DNA from: Calditrichaceae bacterium
Lineage (GTDB): Bacteria > Calditrichota > Calditrichia > Calditrichales > JBFXGD01
Assembly (NCBI GenBank): GCA_050173015.1
Contig: JBFXLE010000011.1
Coordinates: forward strand, 43,718 to 107,717
Reading direction: 5' to 3'
DNA: 64,000 bases
Of this stretch, positions 176-48,625 are shown piece by piece. Positions within the stretch are counted from its first letter, which is position 1; every line of letters begins with the position of its first letter. The notes under the pieces are model-generated. The model was not told where the DNA came from. It did not search any database and saw only the letters and a list, made by a program, of their open reading frames with translations. A program made the position numbers and the translations under genes.

Positions 176-709
176 TCATCGCTCAATATAATTTTTTAGC
201 GAGGATAGATTCAAATTTATCAGCTCATTGAATGCGGGCCGGACAATTATAAAGTCCATTAGTTTTGACAGTACGGGAGGCGCCATATAAGTGATTTCCC
301 AAATGGCTTCCGTGCTTCCGTCCGGTAGTGCTTCCAGTACAATGGACTGCCGGATATTATGAATTAACGATTTCCTTACCGTATCGATCTGAGTAAAAGT
401 GATCCGGTCAGATGACTCGTAAATTTCTATCCGTTCTTTAATTTTCAGCTCTCTTCCGATGATTGAATAATCTACAACACGCAGGGATTTATTAAGTGAG
501 ACTTCGGGATAAAATTCTATCTGCCGTATAGATTTATACCAATTCGAATATTCATTTGGTCCGGTAACCGCTGCCCAGACAACCGTTTCGGGCGCCTCAA
601 TTGTAATCGATTTCCTTATACTGGTTTCGGGATTTAATATGATCCCGGTTACTAAAATGATAGAAAATAGTACGATAAGAATTGCTGAAACCACAGCTGA
701 AGTTTTCAT
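176..709 (-). CDS. SRPBCC/START-like (polyketide cyclase/dehydrase) protein with N-terminal membrane anchor
   Basis: SITIEAPETVVWAAV...W and C-terminal NLSSLKNYIE; the ATG at 709 overlaps the upstream stop (ATGA), so the ORF-track extension to 814 is probably spurious. Confidence 0.75.
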   Translation of the reverse strand: MKTSAVVSAILIVLFSIILVTGIILNPETSIRKSITIEAPETVVWAAVTGPNEYSNWYKSIRQIEFYPEVSLNKSLRVVDYSIIGRELKIKERIEIYESSDRITFTQIDTVRKSLIHNIRQSIVLEALPDGSTEAIWEITYMAPPVLSKLMDFIIVRPAFNELINLNLSSLKNYIER

Positions 710-1485
710 CTGATTAAGAGCATCTTTTTGGTATGGATTTGTTTTTGTCCCGTCAGACGGTAATAATATAATCCTGACGCGGCCGGGATACCGTTTTCGG
801 ACTGTCCGTCCCATAGAACGGTGTGTCTGCCCGTATTGTATATTCCGTCTGCCAGGCTACGAACTAATCTACCCCGGCTGTCAAAAATTTGCAAACTAAT
901 TTTTTGAGGACGGTCCAGTGAGAATCTGATGGTGGTTTCGGGATTAAAGGGATTGGGAAAATTGTGATTCAGCACAAAACTGATCGGATTTTCGGGACCG
1001 GAATCAACTGATGTTGCCAAAAGTCCGTCGATGGAAGCCCTGATATCGGAGATGTTTACGCCAAATCTTAAATATCTGATAATTCCTTCCTGATCGACCA
1101 CTACACTGTAATCATTAGCAACCTTATATGCAGCGCCGGTTTGTTGTCCGTTAAGCAGCAGAGGGTATTGAATCCCTGTACTGTTTTTAAAACTTTGGAG
1201 CTGTGAAGAGTTTCCGTTATAGTAATCAATTCCAACCGCCTGAAAAACGGTTTCACTATAATTATCCGCGATTTGGGTTTGCGTACTGCCGCCGGCAGCG
1301 AGACAAGACGGTCAATTGTATCCGACAAAAAATAGATAGATTACTTTGCCTTTATAATCACTGAGTTTAAATGTGCCTCCGTCCAGCCGGTTTAAAGTAA
1401 AATCGGGCGCCGGATCGCCTACCCCGGCAGTCAGTCCCGCTGAAAGGAGAAGTACCAATATTAACGGGAGAAACTTCGATTGCAT
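706..1485 (-). CDS. Secreted selenoprotein: AhpC/TlpA-like redoxin with UxxC (U58-P-S-C61) plus FlgD-Ig/T9SS-type C-terminal domain, 259 aa
   Basis: ATG at 1485 with GAGGA upstream; MQSKFLPLILVLLLSAGLTA-GVGDPAPDFTLNRLDGGTFKLSDYKGKVIYLFFVGYN[TGA]PSCLAAGG...IQYPLLLNG...SVVVDQEGIIRY continues in frame into the 706..1101 ORF ending NFPNPFNPETTI...KMLLIR. Confidence 0.85.
1279..1306 (-). promoter_or_regulatory. Candidate bacterial SECIS hairpin
   Basis: After UGA: ccgucUUGUcucGCUGCC-GGC-GGCAGUacGCAA; the G-starting apical loop lies 18 nt downstream of the UGA. Confidence 0.65.
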
Positions 1486-1504
1486 TATATATCCTCATTG
1501 TATG

Positions 1505-3019
1505 TTAAAATAGACTATTTAAGCGAAATTCTAATCCTTCAAACGGCTGCACCTGATAACATATTCCGCCGGTACACGCATTACCCCCGCGCCGTTTCCC
1601 ATAGAATAAGGCGGTAGAATGATTCTGATTAATCTGATAATTCAGGCTGAATCCAAGCCATGATTTGTAAATATCATTTTGAAGCGGATTTAGGGTGTTG
1701 TTTTCTACCGGATCATTTGTCAGTTCAAACGCCAGACCACCCGCCAGATTCGGAGCGCGAGTGAACGACAAGCCAAGGTATCCGTTTTTTGTGGTGTGAT
1801 TTTGCTCCTGATTAAATCGGTAGTTTCTGTCAAATTTTTGCGCCTGAATATCAACGGCAAGGCTCCAGATGCTGAGAAAATCATGCTCCAGGGTGATTCC
1901 CGCTGTCATCCGCTCATAAACATCGATGATCGGATCCTCTGACCAGTTAATAAAAGGTCTGATCAGAAAGTAGTCATTCAGGTAATAATTGATGTCAGCA
2001 TGATATTCCTGAAATGTGCGCTTAAAGCTGCCGAATTCATTAGTGGCTCTGGCGTGGTTTAGCGTTAATGTATTAAGTCCGTTGAGATTTATCAGGCTTT
2101 CGAGCTGAAAACCGCGTTCATCCTGCGGCTCGACCGAATGGGTGCTCCTGTTCAATAAAATGAAGGAATGCTCCCGGACAAGCTGCGGTGGATCATTAAA
2201 ATTGAGAGTAAACTCATGATAATCCTTATATTCGGCTATTATGCTTATACGGTTATAACTAAAACTTACCGATGAATAGAAAGCATGCCGGCTTTCTGTG
2301 CCCAATCTAAAAGGATCATTCGCGTCATCCAAATCCTGGACATATTCCACGTAGTATTGACTTCCGGAGATACCGTTGCCACTCAGGTTGAACCCTCCGA
2401 ATTCGGTGATCTCATTCTGGTAATCCTGACGGAGATACAACAGGCCGGGGGTCATTAAATTCCCTAAAGAAAAATTGATTTCACCTGCCTGAAGCAGGTT
2501 TGGGCGTCGCAAATCACGGTCATTTGTCGGCGGGCGTGTTAAGTCAAGAGGTTTTCCGTATAATACTTTCGCCTGAAAAAAATCTCCGGTATATCCCGCC
2601 GAAACTCCTTCTATATCCTTGAAGAAACCGTAATGTTGTCTTGTACCAATGTCTTCAAAAGTAACACCCGGTATCTCATAAGTGCGCAGCAGGAGACCGC
2701 GTCCGAGAATGTCAAAAAAGTTTCCAAGCCTGATCTGAAAATGGTTGTTTTGGAATTTTATATATTTTTGAGAGATTTGATTATACCGGTGGTCATCATT
2801 GGTGACCTCGAACGATTCAGTACGCAGACCGGCACTGAAATTATTATACCGATAATCCAGATTCATCTGATTGTATAAATTGTAATGCGCGGGCTGGCCA
2901 CTGTCCGGGATGTTTCCCAGTTGATATTCAAGACGGTTGGATACGGAGATTTGGCCTGATGTGATTGCGCCGGTGAATAGAATCAGAACTAAAGGAAGCA
3001 AATAATACTTATTTTTCAA
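1505..3019 (-). CDS. Outer-membrane beta-barrel protein (DUF6029-like) with a C-terminal Cys pair
   Basis: Signal peptide, amphipathic strands, GNFFDILGRGLLLR motif, C-terminal GGNACTGGICYQVQPFEGLEFRLNSLF with terminal Phe. Confidence 0.75.
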   Translation of the reverse strand: MKNKYYLLPLVLILFTGAITSGQISVSNRLEYQLGNIPDSGQPAHYNLYNQMNLDYRYNNFSAGLRTESFEVTNDDHRYNQISQKYIKFQNNHFQIRLGNFFDILGRGLLLRTYEIPGVTFEDIGTRQHYGFFKDIEGVSAGYTGDFFQAKVLYGKPLDLTRPPTNDRDLRRPNLLQAGEINFSLGNLMTPGLLYLRQDYQNEITEFGGFNLSGNGISGSQYYVEYVQDLDDANDPFRLGTESRHAFYSSVSFSYNRISIIAEYKDYHEFTLNFNDPPQLVREHSFILLNRSTHSVEPQDERGFQLESLINLNGLNTLTLNHARATNEFGSFKRTFQEYHADINYYLNDYFLIRPFINWSEDPIIDVYERMTAGITLEHDFLSIWSLAVDIQAQKFDRNYRFNQEQNHTTKNGYLGLSFTRAPNLAGGLAFELTNDPVENNTLNPLQNDIYKSWLGFSLNYQINQNHSTALFYGKRRGGNACTGGICYQVQPFEGLEFRLNSLF

Positions 3020-3515
3020 CTTTACTCTCCGGCGAATTTAATATTTTTAGGATTTCCTCTTCAATGATATTTTCATCTCCGGAACGGTAGCCCTTGTGGA
3101 TATAAATGATTTCACGATCACTGTTGATAATCAGCAGGGTTGGTATGTTGATGATGCCCAGTTCGGAGGCAAAGGAGCTGTTAGGGTCAAGAAGAATGGG
3201 ATAACTTATTTTATAAGTCTTTGCGAAGGGTTTAATTTTGGCGGAATTACGCGGGCTGTCCACATTGATTCCGATAAACGCAACGCCGCTATTTTTAAAT
3301 TGTTCGGAAAGTTTGTTCAATTTTGGAAGCGCTTTCGCACAAGGTTTGCACCAGGTGGCCCAAAAATCAATAACAGTTACATTCCCGCCTTTCAGTTCAG
3401 AAAAATTTGTCCATTTATTGTCGATATTTTTTAATTTAAAATCAGGGATAGTTCTTCCGGCCAAGACGGTTTGCAACAGAATAAGAGTGAAATATATCAT
3501 AAATCTGGAACGCAT
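3009..3515 (-). CDS. TlpA/ResA-family exported thiol:disulfide oxidoreductase
   Basis: Signal peptide; IPDFKL...VIDFWATWCKPC; IPT cis-Pro loop. Confidence 0.92.
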   Translation of the reverse strand: MRSRFMIYFTLILLQTVLAGRTIPDFKLKNIDNKWTNFSELKGGNVTVIDFWATWCKPCAKALPKLNKLSEQFKNSGVAFIGINVDSPRNSAKIKPFAKTYKISYPILLDPNSSFASELGIINIPTLLIINSDREIIYIHKGYRSGDENIIEEEILKILNSPESKVEK

Positions 3516-3667
3516 ATTTGTTACCTCGTTCTATTTTATATATATTATTTACTAAAGAGTCTAAGAAAGACTAACGCAGGTTTTTCCCAAAACATTCTAA
3601 TAACTTGAATTGTTCACGCTTATCATACTAATTTGATGAATCAAAGATATTTAACTTCAGATTGTTC

Positions 3668-4042
3668 ATGAAAAAAAAACTAATCGAACTAAACGAAGGA
3701 TTAGATAATCAGCATGTCAACCTGCTCTGTCTTGAAGTAGGAAGAGATATTCAGGTAATACTCAGCGGTGGTGCGTCCCATATCGGCGCGATCGGATTGG
3801 GTGTGTGTTATGACAGTGATAAGGCAAACTCATCGGTAATTGCCGTTCACGGTCACAAAGAGGACGATCTTGTAAAAAAAGCGGCATACAGGTTAAGCAA
3901 GGCATTAAGAAGAAACGTAGCTGTTTCGGCCGGCATTCATTATGATGATTTAACCGGTAATGATATCTCTGCAATTCTCGCCAATGCGGATCTATTGATT
4001 GACCGGTTAATAGAATTGCTCGAAAAAGACTCTAATCGTTAG
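3668..4042 (+). CDS. LpdD-like small protein (prenylated-flavin chaperone-like family)
   Basis: GRDIQVILSGG..HIGA...GHKEDDL...VSAGIHYDDL pattern. Confidence 0.6.
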   Translation: MKKKLIELNEGLDNQHVNLLCLEVGRDIQVILSGGASHIGAIGLGVCYDSDKANSSVIAVHGHKEDDLVKKAAYRLSKALRRNVAVSAGIHYDDLTGNDISAILANADLLIDRLIELLEKDSNR

Positions 4043-12237: not shown

Positions 12238-14691
12238 TTACTTTATCAGCATCATTTTTCTAATCGAACTTTCGCGGTTATCAACGGACAGTTTATAAAA
12301 ATAAAGCCCGCTTGATAAATTTGAACCGTCAAATTTTACCTGATAGGTTCCGGTGGCCTGATTTCTATCGACCAGGCGCGCCACAGTTTGACCAAGGATA
12401 TTATAAACAAGCACACTTACATGGCCGGGTTTGGAGATAGAATATTTGATGGTCGTTTCCGGATTAAACGGATTCGGATAATTTTGATTTAATTTGAAAT
12501 CCGCTATAATAAAGCCGTCATCATGAACCGCAGTGGGAATTCCAAATTCACTGGCGCCGATATCAATCCGGTTGCCGTAGATCCTGTCCACGCCATTTAT
12601 CGCGTACTGATACAAATTTAAACCGGTTGTATCCGGGGTACCGGCATCGATGCACGCGGAACCCTCCGAAAGGTTGTATAGAAGGGAATCGGCGAATTCC
12701 GGGGCGACGTCCAGACAATTGGAATAAATCCCGCTGTACTCAATTCCGGCTCCGTCACCGCTGAAACCGGAGGAATCACCCTCGATGTCACAGTAATAAA
12801 AATCAGGATCACAGGTAGTTTCCAACCGGATCTGTGTGCTTTCATTGCCATAAATAATGTTATTGTACAACTCATTTACAGAAGTTGCCCGGAAACTAAT
12901 TCCTCCGGATTGATTTTCTACTATCGTATTGTTAATAAAACGAGAATTGGACTGATAGCTGTATATACCATAACTGGAATTATTGAAGATCAAATTGCTG
13001 ACAAAATCCGCCTGATTGGAGTATCCGGTATAAACGCCGGATGATGAATTATTGAATATTTTATTGTTATAGATCCAGGGTTGAGAATCGCTCCCGCCAA
13101 TCAACATACCGTAACCATAATTATCATGAATACCGCAGTTTTCGATCACAGGCGAACTATTATCAATATAAACGGCCGCATTGATCCCGTGATTAAAACG
13201 AATATCTGAATGACGAATAAGCAATTTTGAAAATCCTGTGATGTAAAATGCCCCACCATCTTTGTTGATATTGTTGGGATCCCCGTAAGGATTTCCGTAT
13301 TCTATAACGCAGTAGGAAAAAACCGATGTGTCGTTGGCCGCAGGAGTTTGATTAAATAAAATCCGGTTCCAGCCTTCTTGCTGATCCGCGGCGGTGAACT
13401 TAATAGAATCACTCTCCGCGCCTTCCGCGATAAGAGTCCCCTGCACATCGATATAGAAAAATCCCTGGAATATTATTTCGACACCGGGTTCGATAGTCAG
13501 TGTGGTCCCGTCTTTAATAATGATATTTCCATCGATCAGATAGGGTGAATTTTCTTTCCCCCACACCCCCGCAACGGTATCAGTTTTGACATAATATTCG
13601 TACGCGCCGATATCGATCAATCCATTGCTAAATCGTTGTTTACCGGATAGATCAAGAACAGGTAAGGAAGCGTCATAAATATCGTTATATCCCTTGTCCC
13701 GGCAGGGAGAAAGCTTCTGAAGGGCATAGGGGGCATCTCCGGTATTCATAAAGAGAGGATCACTATCAAGGCAATTGCTATAGATTCCCGTAAATTCTGC
13801 GCCTGCGCCGTCTCCGTTAAAATATTCTTTTCCGCCCATGATATTGCAATTGTAAAAATTAGGATCACAGGTTGTTTCCAACTGAATTTGTGTCCCGGTA
13901 TTAGCATAAATAGTATTATTGTACAAATTATTTACCGAATTCGCGCGGAAAAAAATTCCTCCGTTTTGATTTTCTACTATCGTATTGTTAATAAAACGAG
14001 AATTGGACTGATAGCTGTATATACCATAATTGAAATTATTGAATATAAGATTATTGACAAAATCCGCCTGATTGGAGTATCCGGTATAAACGCCGGATGA
14101 TGAATTGTTGAATATTTTATTATTAAAAATCCCGGGTTGAGAACCGCTCCCGCCAATCAACATACCGTAACCATAATTATCATGAATACCGCAGTTTTCG
14201 ATTACAGGCGAAGCGTTATCAATATAAACGGCCGCATTGGTGCCATGATTCTGACGAATATCGGAATGACGAATGCTCAGTTTTGAAAAGCCAGTGATGT
14301 AAAAAGCGCCGCCGTCCTGACTGTTTGAATAAGGTTTACCGTATTCAATAATACAGTAATCGAACAAGGAACTGTCATTCGTAGCGGGCGTCCCGGAGAA
14401 AAGAATCCGGTTCCACCCCTCCGTTATGTTGGATGCCGTAAACTTGATCGAGTCACCGGCGGTGCCCACTGCCTGAACGGAACCCTTGACATCAATCATG
14501 TAAAATCCTTCTGCAATAACGGTTGTACCGGGATTGACCCGCAGATGAACACCGTCTTCAATTAAAATGTCACCTTTTACAAAAACCGTGTCCGCATCCC
14601 ACGCTGAATCGGTTGAAATCGTTCCGGAAACATCGATAGATGAGGCCAGAGTAAAAGATGTCAGACATAATACCAGTAAAATTTTGTACAT
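12238..14691 (-). CDS. Secreted right-handed beta-helix repeat protein (two tandem modules) with T9SS/FlgD-type C-terminal domain
   Basis: Signal peptide; Asn-rich PbH1-like repeats twice, each module ending IDIGA; C-terminal QNYPNPFNPETTI...KMMLIK. Confidence 0.85.
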   Translation of the reverse strand: MYKILLVLCLTSFTLASSIDVSGTISTDSAWDADTVFVKGDILIEDGVHLRVNPGTTVIAEGFYMIDVKGSVQAVGTAGDSIKFTASNITEGWNRILFSGTPATNDSSLFDYCIIEYGKPYSNSQDGGAFYITGFSKLSIRHSDIRQNHGTNAAVYIDNASPVIENCGIHDNYGYGMLIGGSGSQPGIFNNKIFNNSSSGVYTGYSNQADFVNNLIFNNFNYGIYSYQSNSRFINNTIVENQNGGIFFRANSVNNLYNNTIYANTGTQIQLETTCDPNFYNCNIMGGKEYFNGDGAGAEFTGIYSNCLDSDPLFMNTGDAPYALQKLSPCRDKGYNDIYDASLPVLDLSGKQRFSNGLIDIGAYEYYVKTDTVAGVWGKENSPYLIDGNIIIKDGTTLTIEPGVEIIFQGFFYIDVQGTLIAEGAESDSIKFTAADQQEGWNRILFNQTPAANDTSVFSYCVIEYGNPYGDPNNINKDGGAFYITGFSKLLIRHSDIRFNHGINAAVYIDNSSPVIENCGIHDNYGYGMLIGGSDSQPWIYNNKIFNNSSSGVYTGYSNQADFVSNLIFNNSSYGIYSYQSNSRFINNTIVENQSGGISFRATSVNELYNNIIYGNESTQIRLETTCDPDFYYCDIEGDSSGFSGDGAGIEYSGIYSNCLDVAPEFADSLLYNLSEGSACIDAGTPDTTGLNLYQYAINGVDRIYGNRIDIGASEFGIPTAVHDDGFIIADFKLNQNYPNPFNPETTIKYSISKPGHVSVLVYNILGQTVARLVDRNQATGTYQVKFDGSNLSSGLYFYKLSVDNRESSIRKMMLIK

Positions 14692-19905: not shown

Positions 19906-19930
19906 CCCGGTCGATGGTTTGGGAAAAATT

Positions 19931-21610
19931 GTCCACTGATTTCACGGATTACACAGATTACTTAGAAAAAAAATATATCAATTTAATTCTAATCCGTGAA
20001 AATTAGTGAAATCCGTGGACCATCTTGAAAGGCCATCGAAAAAGAAACAAGCCCGCGAATTACACGAATTACCACTAAAATGAAAAAAAGTAATTATTAA
20101 TTGGTGAAAATTAGTGAAATTAGTGGGCCATCTTAAAAAACCGCAAGAGAAGAAGAATTGTCCACAGATTGCACAGATTATTTAGAAAAATAACTATATA
20201 AATTTAATTCTAATCCGTGAAAATCGGTGAAATCCGTGGACCATCTTGAAAGGCCATCGAAAAAGAAACAAGCCCGCGAATTACACGAATTACCACTAAA
20301 ATGAAAAAAAGTAATTATTAATTGGTGAAAATTAGTGAAATTAGTGGGCCATCTTAAAAAACCGCAAGAGAAGAAGAATTGTCCACAGATTGCACAGATT
20401 ATTTAGAAAAATAACTATATAAATTTAATTCTAATCCGTGAAAATCGGTGAAATCCGTGGACCATCTTGAAAGGCCATCGAAAAAGAAACAAGCCCGCGA
20501 ATTACACGAATTACCACTAAAATGAAAAAAAGTAATTATTAATTGGTGAAAATTAGTGAAATTAGTGGGCTATCTTAAAAAGCCGCAAGAGAAGAAGATT
20601 GTCCACAGATTGCACGGATTACACAGATTATTTAGAAAAATAACTATATAAATTTAATTCTAATCCGTGAAAATCGGTGAAATTCGTGGACCATCTTGAA
20701 GGGCCATCTAAAAAGAAACAAGCCCGCGAATTACACGAATTACCACTAAAATGAAAAAAAGTAATTATTAATTGGTGAAAATTAGTGAAATTAGTGGGCT
20801 ATCTTAAAAAGCCGCAAGAGAAGAAGATTGTCCACAGATTGCACGGATTACACAGATTATTTAGAAAAATAACTATATAAATTTAATTCTAATCCGTGAA
20901 AATCGGTGAAATTCGTGGACCATCTTGAAGGGCCATCTAAAAAGAAACAAGCCCGCGAATTACACGAATTACCACTAAAATGAAAAAAAGTAATTATTAA
21001 TTGGTGAAAATTAGTGAAATTAGTGGGCTATCTTAAAAAGCCGCAAGAGAAGAAGAAATGTCCACAGATTGCACGGATTACACAGATTATTTAGAAAAAT
21101 AACTATATAAATTTAATTCTAATCCGTGAAAATCGGTGAAATCCGTGGACCATCTTGAAAGGCCATCGAAAAAGAAACAAGCCCGCGAATTACACGAATT
21201 ACCACTAAAATGAAAAAAAGTAATTATTAATTGGTGAAAATTAGTGAAATTAGTGGGCTATCTTAAAAAGCCGCAAGAGAAGAAGATTGTCCACAGATTG
21301 CACGGATTACACAGATTATTTAGAAAAATAACTATATAAATTTAATTCTAATCCGTGAAAATCAGTGAAATTCGTGGACCATCTTGAAAGGCCATCGAAA
21401 AAGAAACAAGCCCGCGAATTACGCGAATTACCACTAAAATGAAAAAAAGTAATTATTAATTGGTGAAAATTAGTGAAATTAGTGGGCTATCTTAAAAAGC
21501 CGCAAGAGAAAAAGAATTGTCCTCAGATTGCACGGATTACACAGATTGTTTAGAAAAAAAATATATATAAAATTAATTCTAATCCGTGAAAATCAGTGAA
21601 ATTCGTGGAC
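19931..21610. repeat. Tandem array of 220-230-bp units, each with two long imperfect hairpins (8 type A, 7 type B); REP/BIME-like
   Basis: A hairpins (GTCCAC...GTGGAC) start at 19931, 20160, 20381, 20601, 20830, 21060, 21289, 21519; B hairpins (GCCCGCG...GTGGGC) start at 20051, 20272, 20493, 20722, 20951, 21181, 21410. Confidence 0.97.
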
Positions 21611-21623
21611 GATCTTTGCTTTT

Positions 21624-34957: not shown

Positions 34958-36085
34958 TCAGGAATAAAATTCCGAAATACTGTCCATCACATAGTCTTTT
35001 TGCGCATCCGTCAACTCAGGATATATGGGAATCGCCAATGAAGACCCAGCGATTTTTTCCGCGACCGGGAATTCGCCATTTTTATATCCAAGGTAATTAA
35101 AACACTCCTGTTCATGGAAGCAAACCGGATAATATATTTCACAACCGATATTCTTACTTTGAAGAAATTTCAGTAATTCATCACGATTTTCGACCAGTAT
35201 AATATACTGATTGAAAATATGTCTGTATCCTTCAACTCTCACAGGTATTTTTACCTTACTCTGCAAATTGCGCTTTTTTATTCCGGCATCATAATAATCG
35301 GCATTTTTCTGTCTTCCGGCAGTCCATCCGTCTAGATATTTAAGTTTTACATCCAGAACGACGGCCTGGAGCGAATCCAGCCTGAAGTTGCCACCTATCA
35401 TCTTGTGGTAATATTTAGGGTGGGCGCCATGATTTCTTAAATAAGCCAGTTTATTAAACAGGTTTTCATCGTCGGTCGTCACAAGGCCGCCGTCACCGAA
35501 ACCACCGAGGTTCTTACTGGGGAAGAACGAGAAACATCCGATGTGACCAATTGAACCGGCTCTTCTTCCGTCTTTGTATTCAGAACCGATTGCCTGAGCT
35601 GCATCTTCGATGACATACAGACTGTTTTTCTTTGCGATATCCATTATTGGATCCATGTCCGCAAGCTGACCATAAAGATGAACAGGAATAATGGCTTTCG
35701 TTTTCTTTGTTATGGCGGCTTCAATTTTTGATGGATCAATATTATAACTTTCCGGATCAACATCCACAAATACCGGAACAGCATTCATTCGTGATATGCA
35801 TCCGGCAGTTGCAAAAAATGAATAAGTTGTGGTGATAACTTCATCTCCGGGCTGCAGGTCGATTGCCATTAAAGCGATTAATAGCGCGTCTGTCCCGGAT
35901 GAAACACCAAGCGCGTATTTTGATTGACAATAAGAAGCTACATTATCTTCAAAGGCTTTTACTTTAGGCCCCAATATGAAGTACTGCGATTCGATGACAT
36001 CCTTTACCACCGGCTCAATTTCATCACGGATAGCACTGTATTGCGCTTTCAGATCCAGTAACGGAACATTTGTGACTTTTTCCAA
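34958..36085 (-). CDS. DegT/DnrJ/EryC1/StrS sugar aminotransferase
   Basis: SSGTDAL, VHLYGQ, EDAAQ, SFFPSKNLG. Confidence 0.95.
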   Translation of the reverse strand: MEKVTNVPLLDLKAQYSAIRDEIEPVVKDVIESQYFILGPKVKAFEDNVASYCQSKYALGVSSGTDALLIALMAIDLQPGDEVITTTYSFFATAGCISRMNAVPVFVDVDPESYNIDPSKIEAAITKKTKAIIPVHLYGQLADMDPIMDIAKKNSLYVIEDAAQAIGSEYKDGRRAGSIGHIGCFSFFPSKNLGGFGDGGLVTTDDENLFNKLAYLRNHGAHPKYYHKMIGGNFRLDSLQAVVLDVKLKYLDGWTAGRQKNADYYDAGIKKRNLQSKVKIPVRVEGYRHIFNQYIILVENRDELLKFLQSKNIGCEIYYPVCFHEQECFNYLGYKNGEFPVAEKIAGSSLAIPIYPELTDAQKDYVMDSISEFYS

Positions 36086-36183
36086 AATTTATTCTCCTGA
36101 TTTAATTCTTAAGTATAATATTTTATCATCTTAAAATAAGTTTAAATTTACATACAAATTATTGTAATTAAAACGCTTTCTTC

Positions 36184-37668
36184 TTAAAAGTATTTTTTTA
36201 TTCCGGGGATTAGTCTCAAAAACTGCACTGAAATGGATTTTATGCGATCCAATTCGATTTGTTCGTAAAAATTGAGTAATAACAGGGTGAACGGGAATAA
36301 TACGAGTAATGAAAGTTTGAAACTATAATTGATAAGTTCCGACATTGGAGAATATAAAAAAGTAAAAAAATAGAAGATGACTCCCAGGGAAAGAACCTTC
36401 AATAATTTCAAATTTTCAAATGGTATTTTGTAAAGTTTAATCGAAAAATAATATGAACAAACATAGAGTATAATGTATGAAATCAGCGTGGCATATGCCG
36501 CGCCCATCATACGGTATTTTGGAATAAGGTATAAATTGATTCCCACATTTGCGATAAAAGCGATAAGATAAATTAAAGCATAATAGCCGGTTTTTCTCTT
36601 CAGAATAATACTAATAGACGCAACGGAACTCGCGCCACTGAAAATGTAAGCCAGAATTATTATCGGCACAACCGTGGCCGCGGGCCAATAACTCGAGTCG
36701 TTTGCAAAAAATTTGATAAGATCTTGACTAAAAAATGCTAATCCCAGCCCTGCCCAGGTCAGGATAAAAATAAAATATGTCATGATCTTGCTATAATAAC
36801 GCAGATCTCCCTGTTTTCCGTATTTTTTAAACGCGAGAGGCATGATGCCAAGCATAAAGGATTGAATTAAGAAAACATTCAAAATTCCGGCGATTTTATA
36901 CCCTAAGTTATAAAGGCCGACTTCCTCATAATTCACAAGAAGCTTTAGCAGATATCGATCACCCATACTCAGGAGCATTGATGCAAGTGATGAAAAAATT
37001 AATGGTAAACCGAAATAAAACGATTCTTTCCAGATAGACAGATCTATTTTAAACTTCATGTTTGAGATAGATGGAAACAGGAGGATCAGCGTCAGTAAAA
37101 TTTCTCCAATCAGATAGGCATAAAGGATTCCGCTGATGCCGATTTTCAGATATGCCACAAAATATATATTTAAAGCTAATATTACTGTTAATTGCGTGAT
37201 ATTTGATGCCGCGTAGATAACCGATTTTTCTCTGGCCCGCAGATCATTTAATAAGAGGTTGTTCATGACTCTGAAAAAGATGATGCCTGAAGAAATTTGA
37301 AAGTAAAGTTTAAATAAAGATGGCGTCTCAAAAAACGACGATAATGGGCCTGATAAAGAAAAGAACATCATCGTTACTGAAAATGTGGACAAACCCAGCA
37401 TCATAAAAATAGAGAAAAATACTATTTTTCTTTTATTCTCAAAACCCTCTCTGTGGTAATAGCTCAAAAGAGATGTACTTTGGCCAAAAATTAATACCTG
37501 GGACGCGATTAAGAATGTAATCTCTAATACACCCAGAATTCCATATTCGGTAACCGAGATGTGCGCGGTGTATAAGGGAAGGAGTACAATACCGATCAAT
37601 TTTGTCGCGAATGATCCAATACTATAAATTGCGGTATGCTTTAATGTCTCTTTTATGTTCTTAATCAT
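36184..37668 (-). CDS. Wzx-like oligosaccharide flippase
   Basis: Multi-pass membrane protein; LLPLYT..EYG, DRYLL, VGLY, GAAYAT. Confidence 0.88.
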   Translation of the reverse strand: MIKNIKETLKHTAIYSIGSFATKLIGIVLLPLYTAHISVTEYGILGVLEITFLIASQVLIFGQSTSLLSYYHREGFENKRKIVFFSIFMMLGLSTFSVTMMFFSLSGPLSSFFETPSLFKLYFQISSGIIFFRVMNNLLLNDLRAREKSVIYAASNITQLTVILALNIYFVAYLKIGISGILYAYLIGEILLTLILLFPSISNMKFKIDLSIWKESFYFGLPLIFSSLASMLLSMGDRYLLKLLVNYEEVGLYNLGYKIAGILNVFLIQSFMLGIMPLAFKKYGKQGDLRYYSKIMTYFIFILTWAGLGLAFFSQDLIKFFANDSSYWPAATVVPIIILAYIFSGASSVASISIILKRKTGYYALIYLIAFIANVGINLYLIPKYRMMGAAYATLISYIILYVCSYYFSIKLYKIPFENLKLLKVLSLGVIFYFFTFLYSPMSELINYSFKLSLLVLFPFTLLLLNFYEQIELDRIKSISVQFLRLIPGIKKYF

Positions 37669-37747
37669 GCCTTGTTCGTTTTACCCGTCATTGTGGTTCT
37701 TTAACTAATTTGTTAAGCTTACTATGTAATCAGAATGATGATTCTTT

Positions 37748-38530
37748 TTATATCATGGATTTCCTTCTCAGTAGCACAAACAACTGATATGGTTTCTTTG
37801 GAGATAATAATATATTTAATAAATCACATATAAAAGCAACAGCATGGATTTTTGGAGTTATTAAAAATTTTTTGTTGCAGTTCGGACAAAGCGTGCCTGC
37901 TTGTGTAGTCTTGATCCATCTTTTGGGGATCCATGATTCTGGCGGTGCAATGGCATGTTTAATCACGGCCAATAATCCATTGTACCGCCTTATTTTTGTG
38001 CCAAATTCAAAAGACTTGATCACATCAAAATCACTAAATAATTCTTTAATAATTTTCAGATTTAATTTACGCATATGATAAGATCGATTAAATATAAATG
38101 CGCATTGAGGACATTTAATATAATTTTTTTCAACATTTTCATTGTTTGGAAATGTCAGATATATATATTTCCTGCTCAATCTTTTGATTTCAGATATAGT
38201 GGATTCAAAAACTTCATCAGGCAAATGTTCCAGAACTTCACTGGAAAAAACCAAATCGAACTTATTCGTAGCCGCGCCTATCTTGTCCGATGACGCTCTC
38301 AGCCGTTTAGTTGTTACAAAATTTAAGGCGTTTCTGCTTCTGTCAACCGCGATGACATTAAATTTATTACCTAGTTGGTTCGTGATTGTACCATCACCAC
38401 AACCAATGTCAATAAGATTTTGAACATCATGGGGGATGGTCAGTAAAATTTGTTTGATTTTATCTTTTAAATGATTATCAAGATTAGCTGCTGTCCAATC
38501 AAATGATTCGTAATAACTTTTATTATCCAT
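37748..38530 (-). CDS. Class I SAM-dependent methyltransferase
   Basis: LIDIGCGDG, SSEVLEHL; two CxxC motifs. Confidence 0.88.
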   Translation of the reverse strand: MDNKSYYESFDWTAANLDNHLKDKIKQILLTIPHDVQNLIDIGCGDGTITNQLGNKFNVIAVDRSRNALNFVTTKRLRASSDKIGAATNKFDLVFSSEVLEHLPDEVFESTISEIKRLSRKYIYLTFPNNENVEKNYIKCPQCAFIFNRSYHMRKLNLKIIKELFSDFDVIKSFEFGTKIRRYNGLLAVIKHAIAPPESWIPKRWIKTTQAGTLCPNCNKKFLITPKIHAVAFICDLLNILLSPKKPYQLFVLLRRKSMI

Positions 38531-38564
38531 AAATTATAAATCTCAAATATCTTTATTAAAAAAC

Positions 38565-39764
38565 TTAACCTTTAGACTTTACGTCTTGGTAGACTTTAAT
38601 TAAGTTTTTTTCTATTTTTTCCCACCGATACTCTGACTTAATAGCATCAAAGGAGTTTTTTCCCATTTGCACCGCTATATCAGGGTTTTGATACAGGTGA
38701 TAGATTTTATCTGCCAGATCAACCTCATTGGAAGGCTCGTGAATCAATCCACATCCTAATTCTTCTATCAGATTGGCCTGGGCCTCACAATTACTCACGA
38801 TTATGGGTTTTGAGAAGGCCATATATTGAAAAAGTTTGTTGGCGTATGTAGTCTCATGATGTCTGTTTTTTAATAATGGTGAAATGCATACATTACTTGC
38901 TTTTATATAAGAAGGGAATAATTTCATATCCTTCCACCCTACTAAGTCAATCTGTTTTTCTAAATGTAAATCAGCGGTCAAAGTTTTTAAATAGTTGTCA
39001 TCACGGCTATTTCCAACAATGACTAATTTGATATTTTTTATTTTGTGTTTCAAAAGGTTTATAGATTTTATTGCCGATTCTAATCCCCTTCTTACGCCCG
39101 TAGAACCTAAATATAATATGACAAAGTTATATTCGTACTTTTTGGTGATATCCGAATAGACCGGATAACTTAAAAACTTATTTAGTCGTACAGAATTAGG
39201 TACAACATATATGTCATTTTTCCGTTTTTTGCTCTTCTTAAGAATGTCCTTTTTTGCCTCGGCTGTAACAACAATAATTTTATCTACGCGTTCAATAAAA
39301 AAAAACTGTTTTTCCACCCATTTATCAAGGTTAATCAATATATTTCCGGGAAAACTCCTGACGTGAGAATATAATTTCATAATCTCTGGACGATTTTCGT
39401 GTAAATCCAATATGATGGGGATGGTATCATTTTTCCATAATTTTAAAATAGGCTCAATTGCTACCATATCGTGAACGTGAATTACATCGATTGAAACCGT
39501 TTTAAAAAACTGTTGAAGTTTTTTTCTTAATAATTGGTGATAAAATGGTACGGTGTAGGCAAGAGGTGATAACTTCTCATGGAGTAACTTACTGAATTTA
39601 TAGCGATAGACGTTTATATTGTTTATCAATTCAAATGAAGCTTTATTATCAAAATCAAGACAGAACAAGTGCACTTCATGCCCGGCATTTATCAGTGATA
39701 TGGCCTCGTTCTCAACCCGGTTATCAGGCGGGAATTCCTGATCGAGGATCATAGCAATTTTCAA
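38565..39764 (-). CDS. Glycosyltransferase family 4
   Basis: FPPDNRVENEA, HVHD, NKLFQYMA; TTG at 39764 follows GAGGAG. Confidence 0.9.
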   Translation of the reverse strand: MKIAMILDQEFPPDNRVENEAISLINAGHEVHLFCLDFDNKASFELINNINVYRYKFSKLLHEKLSPLAYTVPFYHQLLRKKLQQFFKTVSIDVIHVHDMVAIEPILKLWKNDTIPIILDLHENRPEIMKLYSHVRSFPGNILINLDKWVEKQFFFIERVDKIIVVTAEAKKDILKKSKKRKNDIYVVPNSVRLNKFLSYPVYSDITKKYEYNFVILYLGSTGVRRGLESAIKSINLLKHKIKNIKLVIVGNSRDDNYLKTLTADLHLEKQIDLVGWKDMKLFPSYIKASNVCISPLLKNRHHETTYANKLFQYMAFSKPIIVSNCEAQANLIEELGCGLIHEPSNEVDLADKIYHLYQNPDIAVQMGKNSFDAIKSEYRWEKIEKNLIKVYQDVKSKG

Positions 39765-39824
39765 AATTTCTCCTCTTAACAAAAAATTTTCATTATTTTT
39801 AAATGAAAACAACTTTTCTGAAAA

Positions 39825-41759
39825 CTAAAGGTAATAAGTTTCCAGATCAAAAGCCTTGTCTTTAAATTTATCAGACTGAATAAACATCTTTTCCCAGATC
39901 GCGATTCCAAGGACAATCCATAGGTAATTATAATGCCATCTGAGTCTTGGATGAGGGGGATAATCCATTATGCGCCGCAAATACGCATAATTAAAAATAC
40001 CCTGTTCATCTATAAATTCTTTTGTCAAAATCTTCTCGGCGATCAGCTTTAAATCCTTCTTAAACTGAAGATAAGGATTGACCGTAAATCCCCATTTCTT
40101 CTTTTGGAGAATCTCATCCGGAAGGCGGGAGCGCATTGCTTCCCTGAACAGGTGTTTTGTGACATTTCTCCGGATTTTCATTTCTCCGGGGACCGTGTAC
40201 ATAAACTCAACCAGATCCTTGTCAAGAAACGGCACACGCAATTCAACTGAATGGGCCATTGACATTCTGTCATCAACCAGTAGATAATCATTCACCATTT
40301 TTGAATGAAATTCAGCGTAGGCGACCCGGTCAATGGGTGATAGATTCCCATTCGGCGCGAACAATTGGTCAAAATATTGATGAACTGGTTTTAATTTTGT
40401 CGATAAGAAATCAGGTTGATAAATTTCATGATAGAAGCCCGAATCATATTCCCACACGTTCCGGATAATTAAATAAAACTTTTGCAAATTACCCGTGGAC
40501 AACAACATTTGGAGCCCGCGCCTATATTCATCAAAACGCAGGGTTCCTGATTTGTTCTGAAGCATGAAGAGTAATTGACTGAATGGCTCAAGAAAGGTTT
40601 TTTGAAAACCGGGTGAAAGTTTTTTTAATAATGCTCCTGCCGAATTGATATATTTATAGATATCGTATCCGATAAACAGCTCATCTCCCCCAAGCCCTCC
40701 GAGAATGACTTTATATTCCGGTGAAACAAATCGCGACATATTAAATCCCTGCAGGAGATTTATTTTCGGTTCCTCCGCGTGCCAGATTACCTCAGGAAAT
40801 TGTCTGAGAGGATCAAAGGCCAGTGAGGTTGTATAATGATTCGTATCAAAATGTTTTGCAATTTTTTCAGCGTCCGGGAACTCATCTGTGTCTTCATTAA
40901 ACCCAAGGGTAAATGTATTGATTTCAGGGACATTAAGCTCATGCATCATGGCCACAATGGCAGATGAATCCATGCCGCCGGAGAGATAGACACCTATGGG
41001 AACATCACTTAACAGCTGTTTGCGAATGGCCTCCCTGAGATGAGAATGAATACTCTCAATTACATCCCTTTCGGAAAGTCCGTAATCCGGATTCATCGGC
41101 AGAGTATAATATGGTTTAATACTTATCTTATTATTTTCATAAATTAAGAAGTGGGCGGGAGGAACACGGAAAATGTCCTTGAATAGCGTCTCATCTCCCT
41201 GTGTATATCTTAAATTTATCTGGCTGTGAAGCGCGTCATAATTAATACCGCGTTTGACATCCGGATGAAGAAGGATTGATTTCTGTTCTGATGAGAAAAT
41301 AAATTTATTGTCTTTGCGCCAATAATGAAGAGGTTTAACACCAAAATGATCTCTGACCAGAATTAATCTTTTTTTCTTCACATCATAAAGCGCAAATGCA
41401 AAAATACCGTTTAGATCCTTTATAAAATCCAACCCGTATTCTTCATAACAGTGAACCAGCGTTTCAGTGTCGCTCGTGGTTAAAAATTTATGTCCTTTTT
41501 CTATGAGCCGGTCTTTGATTGATTGAAAATTATAGATTTCTCCGTTAAATACAATGACAACTGATTTATCTTCATTAAATATCGGCTGGTCACCGGTATT
41601 CAGATCGATAATTGATAAGCGCCGGTGTCCGAGTGTGACAGCTCCATTATTGTAATAGCCGGAATTGTCGGGACCGCGATGCGCCATCATATCGCACATA
41701 TCGGTTATCAGCTGCCTGTTATCTTTACCGTTCTCAATGATTCCGCAGATTCCGCACAT
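39825..41759 (-). CDS. asnB: Asparagine-synthase-like glutamine amidotransferase (glycan-associated)
   Basis: MCGICG, HRGPD, FNGEIYN, LSGGMDSS, GGDELF, ELRVPFLD. Confidence 0.92.
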   Translation of the reverse strand: MCGICGIIENGKDNRQLITDMCDMMAHRGPDNSGYYNNGAVTLGHRRLSIIDLNTGDQPIFNEDKSVVIVFNGEIYNFQSIKDRLIEKGHKFLTTSDTETLVHCYEEYGLDFIKDLNGIFAFALYDVKKKRLILVRDHFGVKPLHYWRKDNKFIFSSEQKSILLHPDVKRGINYDALHSQINLRYTQGDETLFKDIFRVPPAHFLIYENNKISIKPYYTLPMNPDYGLSERDVIESIHSHLREAIRKQLLSDVPIGVYLSGGMDSSAIVAMMHELNVPEINTFTLGFNEDTDEFPDAEKIAKHFDTNHYTTSLAFDPLRQFPEVIWHAEEPKINLLQGFNMSRFVSPEYKVILGGLGGDELFIGYDIYKYINSAGALLKKLSPGFQKTFLEPFSQLLFMLQNKSGTLRFDEYRRGLQMLLSTGNLQKFYLIIRNVWEYDSGFYHEIYQPDFLSTKLKPVHQYFDQLFAPNGNLSPIDRVAYAEFHSKMVNDYLLVDDRMSMAHSVELRVPFLDKDLVEFMYTVPGEMKIRRNVTKHLFREAMRSRLPDEILQKKKWGFTVNPYLQFKKDLKLIAEKILTKEFIDEQGIFNYAYLRRIMDYPPHPRLRWHYNYLWIVLGIAIWEKMFIQSDKFKDKAFDLETYYL

Positions 41760-41762
41760 GGG

Positions 41763-42767
41763 TTAAATCCGGTTTAGTTTTTTTAAAGCTTTAAATTTTA
41801 CGGGATACATTCTTGCAATATTATAAATACGATCATATTTTTCAATTTTAAATTGAAATTGACTTAAAAAATCATTTTCCGAGAGTCTGGATAGTATTTT
41901 TAGTTGAGTATTTATTAAACGAAGATATCCAATGGTACATGGATCGGTCTCGGGATAATGATCCATCCTGCAAAGATTAAATCTCAGCCAATATTTCATG
42001 TCAAATTCGGGCAGCCAGTGGGTTAAGCTCTCTATCCCGGCGTTGAAAAGGTTTTTCGCTAACAAATGTGATTCGGCGTCACTTGATTCGGGCACAGCTC
42101 TTACAAAATCATACAGGCCGAAAAGGGAAAAGAGATGTCCGTCCAGCACCATGGTCGGTTCGTCGGCAACATACTCCTCATAAAATGGAAAACCATTTCT
42201 TAGATTCGCCGATACACCGCCGTCGCGAATATCGACAGTGAAGGGAATCAGGGCTTTTTTACAAACGTCGAAATATTCTTTTCGACCGGTCATTTGCCAG
42301 GCCCGGAGCAGGATCGATAAACCGCGGCTCTGGGCGAAGGCCGATTTCCAGGGGCGGGATATTTTGTATTCAGGTTTTGGGATATCCGTCAGCCAGTAAC
42401 TTCCCAGTTTAGAATCATCTACGCGGTTCTCATAAAACCAGTCTGCTAGTCTCAGGAAATATTGTTTTTTATCGATGCTATTTGATTTTTTAAACGAGGC
42501 AAACACAGCCAAACCGTACTGGCCTATTGAAATCGGATAATAATGGAGCCGGGGCTCCTCAACATCAATATAAGATGAGTTCAAAGGAATTCCGTTATCA
42601 TCAAATGTCGAAATAAGCCGGTTCAGGCGGGCCGGATCTTCATCAAATATTAAATAATATTCTCCCAAATCCTCCGAGTGTAATTTTTCTGAAATGGCAA
42701 AGGAATTCCGGTTGGTGATATCGGTCTTTAGTTTTTTAATCATGAACAGGATTTTTTTTATATTCAA
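41763..42767 (-). CDS. D-glucuronyl C5-epimerase family protein
   Basis: PISIGQYGL, WKSAFAQSRGLSILLRA, FYEEY, VLDGHLFSLFGLYD. Confidence 0.85.
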   Translation of the reverse strand: MNIKKILFMIKKLKTDITNRNSFAISEKLHSEDLGEYYLIFDEDPARLNRLISTFDDNGIPLNSSYIDVEEPRLHYYPISIGQYGLAVFASFKKSNSIDKKQYFLRLADWFYENRVDDSKLGSYWLTDIPKPEYKISRPWKSAFAQSRGLSILLRAWQMTGRKEYFDVCKKALIPFTVDIRDGGVSANLRNGFPFYEEYVADEPTMVLDGHLFSLFGLYDFVRAVPESSDAESHLLAKNLFNAGIESLTHWLPEFDMKYWLRFNLCRMDHYPETDPCTIGYLRLINTQLKILSRLSENDFLSQFQFKIEKYDRIYNIARMYPVKFKALKKLNRI

Positions 42768-44050
42768 TGAGAATCTCCCGCAAGAATCTCAGCTAATTTC
42801 TTTGACAATTCTTTTCTGGAGTACTTGCTTGTCTCTGTCTTGTCTGCTTTATTCCACCGGTCGTTTTTCCAGTTTTGGAAATATGATAACAGCGTATCAT
42901 TAAGCGATTGATTATGTGCGTACATTTTCCCGCTTCCGGTCTGTTCCAGAATCATCGCTGCGTCACCATCAACGGGCCCTATTCCCAGAATATAATTTCC
43001 GGAGGCCATATACTCAAAAATTTTGCCTGTTACGATTCCCCTGTTCTCCGGAATATCCGGAATAACGAGTAACAGTAGGTCCGAATCGATCATCTGAACG
43101 AGCATCTTATCATGAGAAATATAAGGATTGAAATTAATATATGATTCTAAATTATATTCCTTGACGGTCATCTCGATTGTTTTATGGACACTGCCGAAGA
43201 ATGTAATTTCCATCTTGTTAAGAATAGCCGGATCAAAGCTTGTAAGTGATTTAAAAAAAGCGTGAATATTCTGGTCCTTTCCCAAATGGCCAAAATATTT
43301 TATTCTGAACTTACGGCTTTGTTTTTTCTCCACATTACCAAAATCATCCGGATCGTATCCATTGGAAATTAAATGATAGTTATTATTTGCTTTATGGCTG
43401 AAAAGGCTGATTAAAGATGGACTGATTGTTACAATTTCGTCAGCCGCGCCGAGAGTTTCTTTCTCCATTTTAAGGTCACGGTTCCGGGCATAGTTTGTGC
43501 GTGTAAGATCACTTTGCCAGAACGCGTCCACCCACGGATCTCTGTAATCGGCGATCCACCTTAGTCCTGATTTTTTGGCCAGGCGCCGTGCGATTAGCTG
43601 AACGGAGTGCGGCGGAGAGGATGACAAAATGACATCAATGTTTTCATTCTCTATAATTTTCATCCCGGTTCTTACGGCAAATGGAATCCAGCCTATTTTG
43701 GCATCCGGGATAAATACATTAGAGCGAATCCAGCGGGAGATTCGTTCCTTAATATTTTCATCGTGTTTTTTGTTCAATACAAACGTTGGAAGTTTCTCGT
43801 TTTTTTTCCTTCCGGTAAATCTTTTGTAAAGCGTAACCGGTTCCAGACTGCTGGTTTTATATACCTTACAACCTTCCGGAATGTCTTTGAGCAGGCTCTC
43901 ATCAATAGCAGGATATTCACCGCTCTCTACCGTCAGTATCACCGGTTGCCAGCCGAACTCCGGAAGATATTTCGCGAATTTTAATACCCGCTGAACCCCG
44001 GGTCCGCCTGCCGGCGGCCAGTAATAGGTAATGATCAGGACTTTTTTCAT
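42764..44050 (-). CDS. Glycosyltransferase family 4
   Basis: YYWPPAGGPGVQR, DYRDPW, GKIFEY. Confidence 0.92.
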   Translation of the reverse strand: MKKVLIITYYWPPAGGPGVQRVLKFAKYLPEFGWQPVILTVESGEYPAIDESLLKDIPEGCKVYKTSSLEPVTLYKRFTGRKKNEKLPTFVLNKKHDENIKERISRWIRSNVFIPDAKIGWIPFAVRTGMKIIENENIDVILSSSPPHSVQLIARRLAKKSGLRWIADYRDPWVDAFWQSDLTRTNYARNRDLKMEKETLGAADEIVTISPSLISLFSHKANNNYHLISNGYDPDDFGNVEKKQSRKFRIKYFGHLGKDQNIHAFFKSLTSFDPAILNKMEITFFGSVHKTIEMTVKEYNLESYINFNPYISHDKMLVQMIDSDLLLLVIPDIPENRGIVTGKIFEYMASGNYILGIGPVDGDAAMILEQTGSGKMYAHNQSLNDTLLSYFQNWKNDRWNKADKTETSKYSRKELSKKLAEILAGDSH

Positions 44051-44060
44051 TTTTTTTATA

Positions 44061-46547: not shown

Positions 46548-46616
46548 AAAATCTCCTTGTCTGGAATTTAATTTTGCCGGAGGTGATAATTTCTGATCTA
46601 AATTAACAAATGCAGG

Positions 46617-47660: not shown

Positions 47661-47684
47661 GAAAGTGTTATCTCGGTTAGAAGG

Positions 47685-48608: not shown

Positions 48609-48625
48609 ATAAATTCCCGGTTTCC

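Follow-up and report, generated by a model that had tools for sequence, protein, structure and literature searches.

A conserved trio of a TlpA-like redoxin, a DUF6029 barrel and a second redoxin with selenocysteine forms: a candidate thiol/selenol exchange line across the outer membrane

Near the beginning of a 64,000-nucleotide stretch of DNA from a Calditrichaceae bacterium (contig JBFXLE010000011.1, positions 43,718 to 107,717 of the forward strand; hereafter the window) lies an operon whose first three genes encode a TlpA-like redoxin of the periplasm, an outer-membrane beta-barrel of the DUF6029 family (PF19494) and a second redoxin, Rdx2, which carries export signals and a predicted selenocysteine (Sec) in its active site. 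The barrel has a pair of cysteines (Cys) close to its C-terminus that is nearly invariant in its family, and the two redoxin genes accompany the barrel gene in several phyla. The simplest reading of this trio, which we call the cassette, is thiol-disulfide exchange that links the periplasm and the cell surface through the Cys pair of the barrel. Based on sequence comparisons we tentatively propose, as a serious possibility rather than a probability, that the trio forms a line of thiol/selenol exchange that crosses the outer membrane and is laid out like the MtrCAB complex. The parts come from known superfamilies; their assembly matches no described system, and a literature search over titles and the beginnings of abstracts, outside of which most subscription journals lay, returned no description of a barrel-linked redoxin module.

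Diderm bacteria bring reducing power into the periplasm via DsbD/CcdA, and to our knowledge only heme wires such as MtrCAB take it further, across the outer membrane. How thiol enzymes of the outer surface are recycled is an open problem, e.g. for the surface thioredoxin HBP35 or for the putative outer-membrane proteins with thiols that were long ago proposed to mobilise elemental sulfur, and the cassette is a concrete and widespread candidate for such a route (1600 representatives, from Bacteroidota, Calditrichota, Balneolota, Fibrobacterota and candidate phyla). If the proposal is true, it would supply a function for DUF6029 and would add a surface-anchored selenoprotein exported by a type IX secretion system (T9SS) to the selenoproteome. 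Cultured carriers exist (e.g. Flavobacterium glaciei, Gracilimonas mengyeensis and Reichenbachiella agariperforans), which makes the cassette directly testable.

Recurrence of the gene trio and of the cysteine pair

The original prediction had described four tightly coupled genes on the minus strand, and re-reading the locus with open reading frames (ORFs) listed under table 11 and again with TGA read as Sec gave the same layout, with an overlap of 11 nt between the TlpA and barrel genes, a gap of 19 nt before Rdx2, and an ATGA overlap between Rdx2 and a fourth gene for an SRPBCC protein. It had also stated that the 504-aa barrel contains only two cysteines and is flanked by an exported thioredoxin with WCKPC and by a UxxC protein (U, Sec). 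The two residues are indeed C482 and C487, both within GGNACTGGIC, and both flanking proteins were recovered by the ORF listing and by Pfam. The TlpA-like protein matched AhpC-TSA (6.5e-27) and Redoxin (8.7e-26), with Thioredoxin_8 also above its cut-off, the barrel matched DUF6029 with 84.9 bits against a gathering cut-off of 27 (E 6.7e-24), Rdx2 matched AhpC-TSA (8.2e-16)/Redoxin plus a C-terminal FlgD_ig/Por_Secre_tail domain, and the fourth protein matched Polyketide_cyc2 (3.2e-9). Because TlpA has only C56 and C59, the barrel only C482 and C487, Rdx2 only U58 and C61, and the SRPBCC protein no cysteine at all, the proteins of the operon contain three dithiol-type pairs and otherwise no Cys.

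The barrel has 128 homologs at E<=1e-5, the closest named ones from Calditrichaceae (83% identity), and PF19494 is present in all of the best 120 of these 128. Conservation of the Cys pair, which had been set as a test of the prediction, is complete in this set: all 119 full-length proteins among the best 120 carry the motif G..C..G.C within their last 45 residues, and exactly two cysteines after residue 25 are found in 100 of the 119. Across an alignment of 47 barrels with 27-83% identity, neither C482 nor C487 varies, and F472, G474, R476, G479, G485, G495 and E497 are likewise invariant. Searching 1.84 billion cluster representatives (clustered at 50% identity) with a profile extended the family to 1600 representatives at E<=1e-3, with 910 at <=1e-10 and 318 at <=1e-30, and CxxxxC lies within the last 50 residues in 122 of 139 new barrel representatives; 16 of the other 17 are fragment-like or have foreign tails, and one (P0183) is full-length. 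NCBIfam holds no family for the barrel, and with 255-290 barrels (effective number about 200-245), a depth that proved too low, mean-field covariation yielded gap and noise artefacts only.

Co-occurrence of barrel and redoxins had likewise been set as a test. We scanned one genome per species, which returned 90 relatives, and retained 80 loci from Calditrichota, KSB1, Bacteroidota, Balneolota, Eisenbacteria, Fibrobacterota and unclassified metagenome-assembled genomes. In 76 of these 80 loci the gene immediately upstream of the barrel, on the same strand, encodes a TlpA, and the remaining four have less than 140 nt of DNA before the barrel; an Rdx2 homolog is found within the cassette in 74 loci, the other six breaking off on one side at a contig end. 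When the 771 ORFs of the 80 loci were clustered, the only widespread families were the barrel (76 loci) and the thioredoxin folds (74 loci), followed at a distance by a histidine kinase (9 loci), a response regulator (8), an AraC-type regulator (8), an ABC ATPase (7) and the SRPBCC family (5). The SRPBCC gene adjoins the cassette in those five loci only, all of them from Calditrichota. No gene for DsbD/CcdA, for polysaccharide export or synthesis, or for sulfur or selenium metabolism recurs among the 771 ORFs. The distance from the TlpA stop to the barrel start, taken as the start of the longest ORF, has a median of -4 nt, with overlap in 51 of 72 loci and at most 40 nt in 71 of 72, and TlpA is accordingly predicted to be translationally coupled to the barrel. 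The recurrence of the Cys motif and of the gene trio exceeds chance. The genes travel together, and from sequence comparison we regard the trio as a predicted, obligate redox module of the envelope across the Fibrobacteres–Chlorobi–Bacteroidetes superphylum.

In eight to nine loci of Bacteroidota, genes for a histidine kinase and an OmpR-type response regulator immediately precede the cassette on its own strand, and in eight other loci an AraC-type regulator takes this place. These upstream regulators (L070:3374-4837, L037:2632-3333, L041:3414-4259 and relatives) suggest that the cassette may be inducible in those lineages.

The first protein of the cassette is of the TlpA type in that it combines an exported thioredoxin fold with W-C-x-x-C, and it stays below the NCBIfam equivalog cut-offs of the individual families (ResA, 97.5 vs 170 bits; DsbE, 52.8 vs 123; TlpA, 48.5 vs 230). 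D50, F51, W52, C56, P58 and C59 are invariant in 56 orthologs; the upstream orthologs read DFWATWCxPC, with CKPC in 59 of 74, and a lipobox is absent from 55 of 57 N-termini. Its best solved relatives are ResA, DsbE, StoA and TlpA. The uncharacterised thioredoxin-like structure PDB 2M72 matches the profile of the cassette TlpA with 1.8e-34 (ResA, 3.8e-30) and has in common with it CKPC and a C-terminal H-x-G-Y-x-x-G-x-E, which is missing from ResA in the alignment; judged by these shared motifs, 2M72 may be an ortholog of the cassette TlpA. TlpA and Rdx2 have paralogous folds (hhalign probability 99.1%, 22% identity).

In some genomes TlpA and barrel are one protein. The Atlas contains no model of the barrel of the window, but the structural neighbours of its model of a barrel homolog (P0090) include a cluster of 59 members with 642 aa and with Krumholzibacteriota as the commonest phylum, in which AhpC-TSA (PF00578) and DUF6029 (PF19494) are both present in 100% of the members. 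A search for longer proteins with the TlpA of the window as query found three TlpA-barrel fusions, P0260 (661 aa), P0261 (650 aa) and P0263 (669 aa), all of which consist of a signal peptide, a TlpA domain with DFWATWCVPC or NFWATWCKPC, a linker not longer than about ten residues and a barrel with CX4C; the corresponding search with the barrel as query, among proteins of 883-2520 aa, found no fusion. The N-terminus of an outer-membrane barrel is periplasmic, and therefore the fused TlpA domain should sit at the periplasmic rim, attached next to the first strand, which adjoins the last one. The three fusions also have an extra conserved Cys about 56-86 residues before CX4C that the barrel of the window lacks.

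Selenocysteine and predicted surface location of Rdx2

That the in-frame TGA at residue 58 of Rdx2 encodes Sec, as had been claimed, is well supported by comparative sequence evidence. The alignment column of U58 is occupied by TGA in the window and in 21 genes from 20 loci, and by Cys in 59-60 other genes. After the TGA the frame is open for 201 more codons, and conservation runs through the remainder of the fold and on through the sorting domain. For 81 domains (22 Sec, 59 Cys), a quick maximum-likelihood tree requires at least six changes between Sec and Cys, five of which are forced by well-supported branches, while shuffled Sec/Cys labels gave a mean of 19.6 changes. The stretch of 36 nt that begins at position 7 after the codon has a mean folding energy of -9.0 kcal/mol in the 21 Sec genes vs -4.8 in 60 Cys genes (Mann-Whitney p 4.8e-7, a value that ignores phylogeny and the difference in GC, 0.56 vs 0.49). 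Of the 22 Sec segments, 10 that share one register were picked by eye; in these, 50 of 50 cells of a 5-bp stem are paired, and four of its five pairs show compensatory change; controls with the stem slid along the segments were paired in 18-42%. The TGA/Cys column, the downstream conservation, the hairpin that covaries in this subgroup and the repeated switches between Sec and Cys all point to Sec.

Were the TGA a true stop, the gene would be a split or dead redoxin gene consisting of a 57-aa fragment and a downstream fragment. Under table 11 the frame does end at 1312-1314, Rfam and tRNA scans of the 64-kb window were without any match, tRNA-Sec included, and no sel genes are present in it, and the energy of the hairpin in the window is in itself ordinary (z 0.33). 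But a decayed gene does not explain why the TGA falls exactly on the position of the first active-site Cys in genes of 20 loci, why conservation crosses it into the sorting domain, or why the hairpin covaries in the picked subgroup and the Sec genes fold more stably 3' of the codon than the Cys genes, and we consider a true stop extremely improbable. None of the other in-frame TGAs in the window is Sec-like.

Rdx2 resembles other selenoproteins with a thioredoxin fold and UxxC in having Sec in place of the first Cys of CxxC and Cys orthologs in other lineages. It reaches no curated NCBIfam cut-off of a Sec family, with WAxxUGC, SelL-related, PrxU and TsoB among the weak matches. The NCBIfam ‘deiodinase family protein’, a Sec-using family with a thioredoxin fold, was matched by 11 of 31 Rdx2 orthologs (best E 3.2e-8), the Rdx2 of the window not among them. 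Peroxiredoxins have their peroxidatic Cys in the context P-x-x-x-T/S-x-x-C; Rdx2 reads F-V-G-Y-N-U-P-S-C (consensus F-G-Y-x-C-P-x-C), without the T/S three residues before and with a second Cys of the CxxC type, and its identity as a peroxiredoxin was rejected. No T9SS-exported, surface-anchored selenoprotein was found in the literature search, whose limits are given above.

Rdx2 is predicted to be displayed on the cell surface, either by a T9SS domain or by a lipoprotein export signal. In the window, the T9SS type A sorting domain TIGR04183 scores 37.3 bits against a curated cut-off of 23 (Por_Secre_tail of Pfam, with 25.8 bits, stays slightly under its cut-off of 27), and TIGR04183 was matched in 31 of 31 Rdx2 orthologs tested. 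Two architectures can be distinguished: in Calditrichota, KSB1, Balneolota and part of the Bacteroidota, Rdx2 has a signal peptide and a T9SS domain and is mostly encoded downstream of the barrel, while Flavobacterium, Paludibacter, Saprospiraceae and other Bacteroidota encode it upstream of TlpA, as a lipoprotein that is either short or duplicated in tandem. Among 73 evaluable gene models 41 have a sorting domain (37 by alignment coverage and four more by Pfam), 30 have a lipobox and two have neither (L008, and L043, whose start is unclear). At least two Asp/Glu occur in the seven residues after the lipid Cys in 22 of the 30 lipoproteins, often as S-K-D-E-D/E, and in sequence this acidic run matches the signal K-(D/E)2 described for the export of surface lipoproteins in Bacteroidetes (PMC5080379). 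Two unrelated export signals with a common destination argue for the importance of the surface location.

A second putative T9SS cargo is encoded in the window, an 817-aa right-handed beta-helix/NosD-like protein (12238-14691, minus strand; Por_Secre_tail 3.2e-11), and its sorting domain would fit an organism that uses T9SS; genes for the T9SS machinery were not seen in the 64-kb window.

A proposed exchange line and competing readings

In the proposed exchange line TlpA, as a soluble dithiol reductase of the periplasm, would dock at the periplasmic mouth of the barrel, the Cys pair of the barrel would be redox-active, and reducing equivalents would pass from the periplasm to the surface Rdx2 by thiol-disulfide or selenosulfide exchange. 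The upstream source of electrons would be a transporter of the DsbD/CcdA type encoded elsewhere, and Rdx2 might in turn reduce extracellular disulfides or oxidised compounds of sulfur or selenium. This relay had been put forward in the original prediction, and it gains from the conserved Cys pair, the co-occurring redoxins, the fusions, the gene coupling and the surface signals of Rdx2; its electron transfer steps keep the standing of a proposal. In a more specific form, which we consider unlikely though worth stating, TlpA would cap or plug the mouth of the barrel and form, together with CX4C and the [Sec/Cys]xxC of Rdx2, a cofactor-free wire of three pairs in series. Such a plug would parallel both MtrA in MtrB and the N-terminal helical plug of Wzi, and if true, the wire would supply a selenoenzyme on the surface and be the first electron conduit through a bacterial outer membrane that does without heme.

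The likeness to MtrCAB lies in the placement of three parts, a periplasmic redox protein, a barrel and a surface redox protein, which in the cassette is predicted from sequence. The order of the mtr genes is mtrC-mtrA-mtrB, and the lipoprotein-type cassette has the same order of surface protein, periplasmic protein and barrel. In MtrCAB, MtrA is located inside the 26-strand barrel of MtrB and touches the surface protein MtrC, so that a wire leads from the periplasm through the barrel to the surface (PMC7198977). In contrast, the cassette has neither hemes nor CxxCH but one Cys/Sec pair per protein, and no homology connects the two systems. Its barrel of about 480 residues resembles the 18-stranded type, whereas MtrB with its 26 strands sheathes MtrA, and thiol exchange requires direct contact, which hopping from heme to heme does not.

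With the known pathway from DsbD/CcdA to TlpA, ResA or CcmG the cassette shares its first gene, a thioredoxin fold with a signal peptide and WCxPC. However, this TlpA is tied to an outer-membrane barrel rather than to genes for the maturation of cytochrome c or Cu centres, none of which was found in the window or recurring in the 80 loci, and the membrane to be crossed here would be the outer one, with a beta-barrel as carrier. For Rdx2, PDB matches include 2yp6, 4hqz and 4hqs, which we take to be Etrx chains. The Etrx pathway of Streptococcus pneumoniae (CcdA-Etrx1/2-MsrAB2) brings electrons outward (PMC3914529), and HBP35 of Porphyromonas gingivalis is a T9SS cargo with thioredoxin activity (PMC4674972); both have, like Rdx2, a thioredoxin fold outside the cell. 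Yet pneumococcus has no outer membrane to cross, the accessible part of the source literature on HBP35 mentions no recycling route, and neither protein is a selenoprotein or tied to a Cys-bearing barrel.

Several observations weigh against the exchange line. Along the barrel, short turns of fixed length alternate, by eye, regularly with long indel-rich loops, and a hand-made strand map places the Cys loop outside if residues 486-504 form one strand and on the periplasmic side if P-F-E-G (492-495) is a tight turn; of 108 parameter sets of a crude topology model based on dynamic programming, 74 assign it to the periplasmic end and 34 to an extracellular loop. The two approaches thus disagree about the side of the membrane on which the loop lies. 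A single Cys pair at one mouth cannot alone span about 25 Å, and a thioredoxin domain of 150 residues should not pass an 18-stranded barrel. Neither the 64-kb window nor the neighbourhood of the cassette in the 80 loci, in which no such gene recurs, provides a DsbD/CcdA gene as a source of electrons. In the full-length barrel P0183 (492 aa) both Cys are replaced while the frame GKRRG...FEG...F is retained. The active-site dipeptide of Rdx2 is variable (CPHC, CPSC, CPPC, UPTC and USSC), and CPHC, present in 14 genes, is the motif of the oxidant DsbA, so that electrons might flow in either direction. Step by step the relay is a proposal from sequence comparison. As to the span of a single pair, CcdA moves electrons across its membrane with one Cys pair by alternating access (PMC12288474).

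The same trio, with the same split between surface and periplasm, could also work as a reactive import channel, in which the redox centres act on cargo. The barrel would take up thiol-reactive compounds, e.g. the sulfane sulfur of polysulfide or elemental sulfur, selenium, or cystine and similar disulfide nutrients, which Rdx2 would attack and capture, the Cys pair of the barrel would carry or gate, and TlpA would free by reduction. Sec is the better nucleophile for such a capture, Sec forms occur mainly in Calditrichota, KSB1-type and other uncultured lineages, and the two-component and AraC-type regulators upstream suggest that an outside signal induces the cassette. A role as activators of extracellular sulfur was proposed long ago for outer-membrane proteins with thiols and is still unconfirmed (PMC10045233), and an import channel would answer this old proposal. 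But the genes beside the cassette include no recurring sulfur or selenium metabolism, aerobic heterotrophs, e.g. Flavobacterium, Gracilimonas and Reichenbachiella, are among its carriers, any net reduction outside the cell would still depend on Rdx2 being reduced again, and none of the data here pinpoints a cargo; we hold import to be unlikely, though a reading to be reckoned with. Somewhat further down we would place a structural or regulatory disulfide, in which C482-C487 would stabilise the fold or gate a channel of some other function, with TlpA as a dedicated maturation factor or redox switch and Rdx2 as a co-regulated antioxidant or oxidase of the surface that exchanges no electrons with the barrel. 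The spacing of CX4C suits a small disulfide loop, P0183 as the sole full-length departure has lost both Cys together, as expected of a disulfide pair, the CPHC of some Rdx2 resembles the oxidant DsbA, and a set of invariant polar residues (E68, D135, E225, K265, N290, R291, T293, H294, E301, Q305 and E307) implies a function of the barrel beyond its Cys pair. Such a disulfide leaves unexplained, however, why two dedicated redoxins accompany the barrel in 74-76 of the 80 loci and in several phyla, why a TlpA domain is permanently fused to it, and why the surface partner bears the cost of a Sec active site, and we judge it quite unlikely.

The literature listed for DUF6029 concerns polysaccharide export, and for PF19494 nothing was found. 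By HHpred the family resembles the 18-stranded Wzi barrel minus its plug, among homologs near genes for outer-membrane polysaccharide export (OPX) (PMC9603273), and the barrel could hence be a plug-less Wzi-like porin for polysaccharide export with the redoxins as unrelated neighbours. In the fusions the TlpA domain even takes the N-terminal place of the Wzi helical plug, and the window contains a polysaccharide synthesis cluster at about 34958-51087 on the minus strand. This cluster (a DegT aminotransferase, a flippase, glycosyltransferases, an asparagine synthase, a C5-epimerase-like protein, and tetratricopeptide-repeat and DUF4292 proteins) is, however, more than 30 kb away from the barrel and not linked to it in other genomes, and no polysaccharide family recurs among the ORFs of the 80 loci, whereas the redoxins do in 74-76. 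The profile of the barrel matches no solved structure by sequence at E<=10, Wzi included; the barrel of the window begins right after its signal peptide, without a helical plug; and an invariant CX4C and redoxin partners do not appear in the available parts of the Wzi descriptions. Gene context thus disfavours the polysaccharide porin, which we consider very improbable.

Coordinates and further features of the window

The coordinates of the operon and of its active-site features are collected in Table 1.

Table 1. Genes of the cassette operon and features within them (positions in the window)
Feature	Position	Strand	Description
TlpA-like periplasmic redoxin with thioredoxin fold	3009..3515	minus	168 aa, cleavable signal peptide, WCKPC at residues 55-59
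Active-site codons of TlpA	C56, 3350-3348; C59, 3341-3339	minus	
DUF6029 outer-membrane beta-barrel (predicted)	1505..3019	minus	504 aa, TTG start, signal peptide
Cys loop of the barrel	1556..1594	minus	R476-R477-G-G-N-A-C482-T-G-G-I-C487-Y488
Cys codons of the barrel	C482, 1576-1574; C487, 1561-1559	minus	inside GGNACTGGIC
Rdx2 (second redoxin)	706..1485	minus	259 aa/codons, signal peptide, thioredoxin fold, U58-P-S-C61
In-frame TGA, residue 58 of Rdx2 (Sec, well supported)	1312..1314	minus	motif UPSC
Hairpin like a selenocysteine insertion sequence (SECIS)	1285..1299	minus	GCUGCC-GGC-GGCAGU, begins 12 nt 3' of the TGA
C-terminal T9SS sorting domain of Rdx2	709-966	minus	residues about 174-259
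SRPBCC (Polyketide_cyc2) protein	176..709	minus	177 aa, N-terminal membrane anchor; lineage-specific fourth gene

A scan for promoters and terminators found 18 promoter-like sites, where 11.6 ± 3.0 were expected, and 0 terminators. Upstream of the operon, at a distance of 146 nt and in divergent orientation, the window encodes a 126-aa protein of the PAC_bac family (3662-4042, plus strand; 2e-28), which is like a proteasome assembly chaperone and forms no widely recurring cluster of neighbours among the 80 loci. Further along, between the genes for a phosphoglycerate mutase and a D-Ala-D-Ala carboxypeptidase, a stretch of 1.7 kb without a long ORF is occupied by a tandem array of 7.5 copies of a 229-nt unit with 96% matches (19923-21616).

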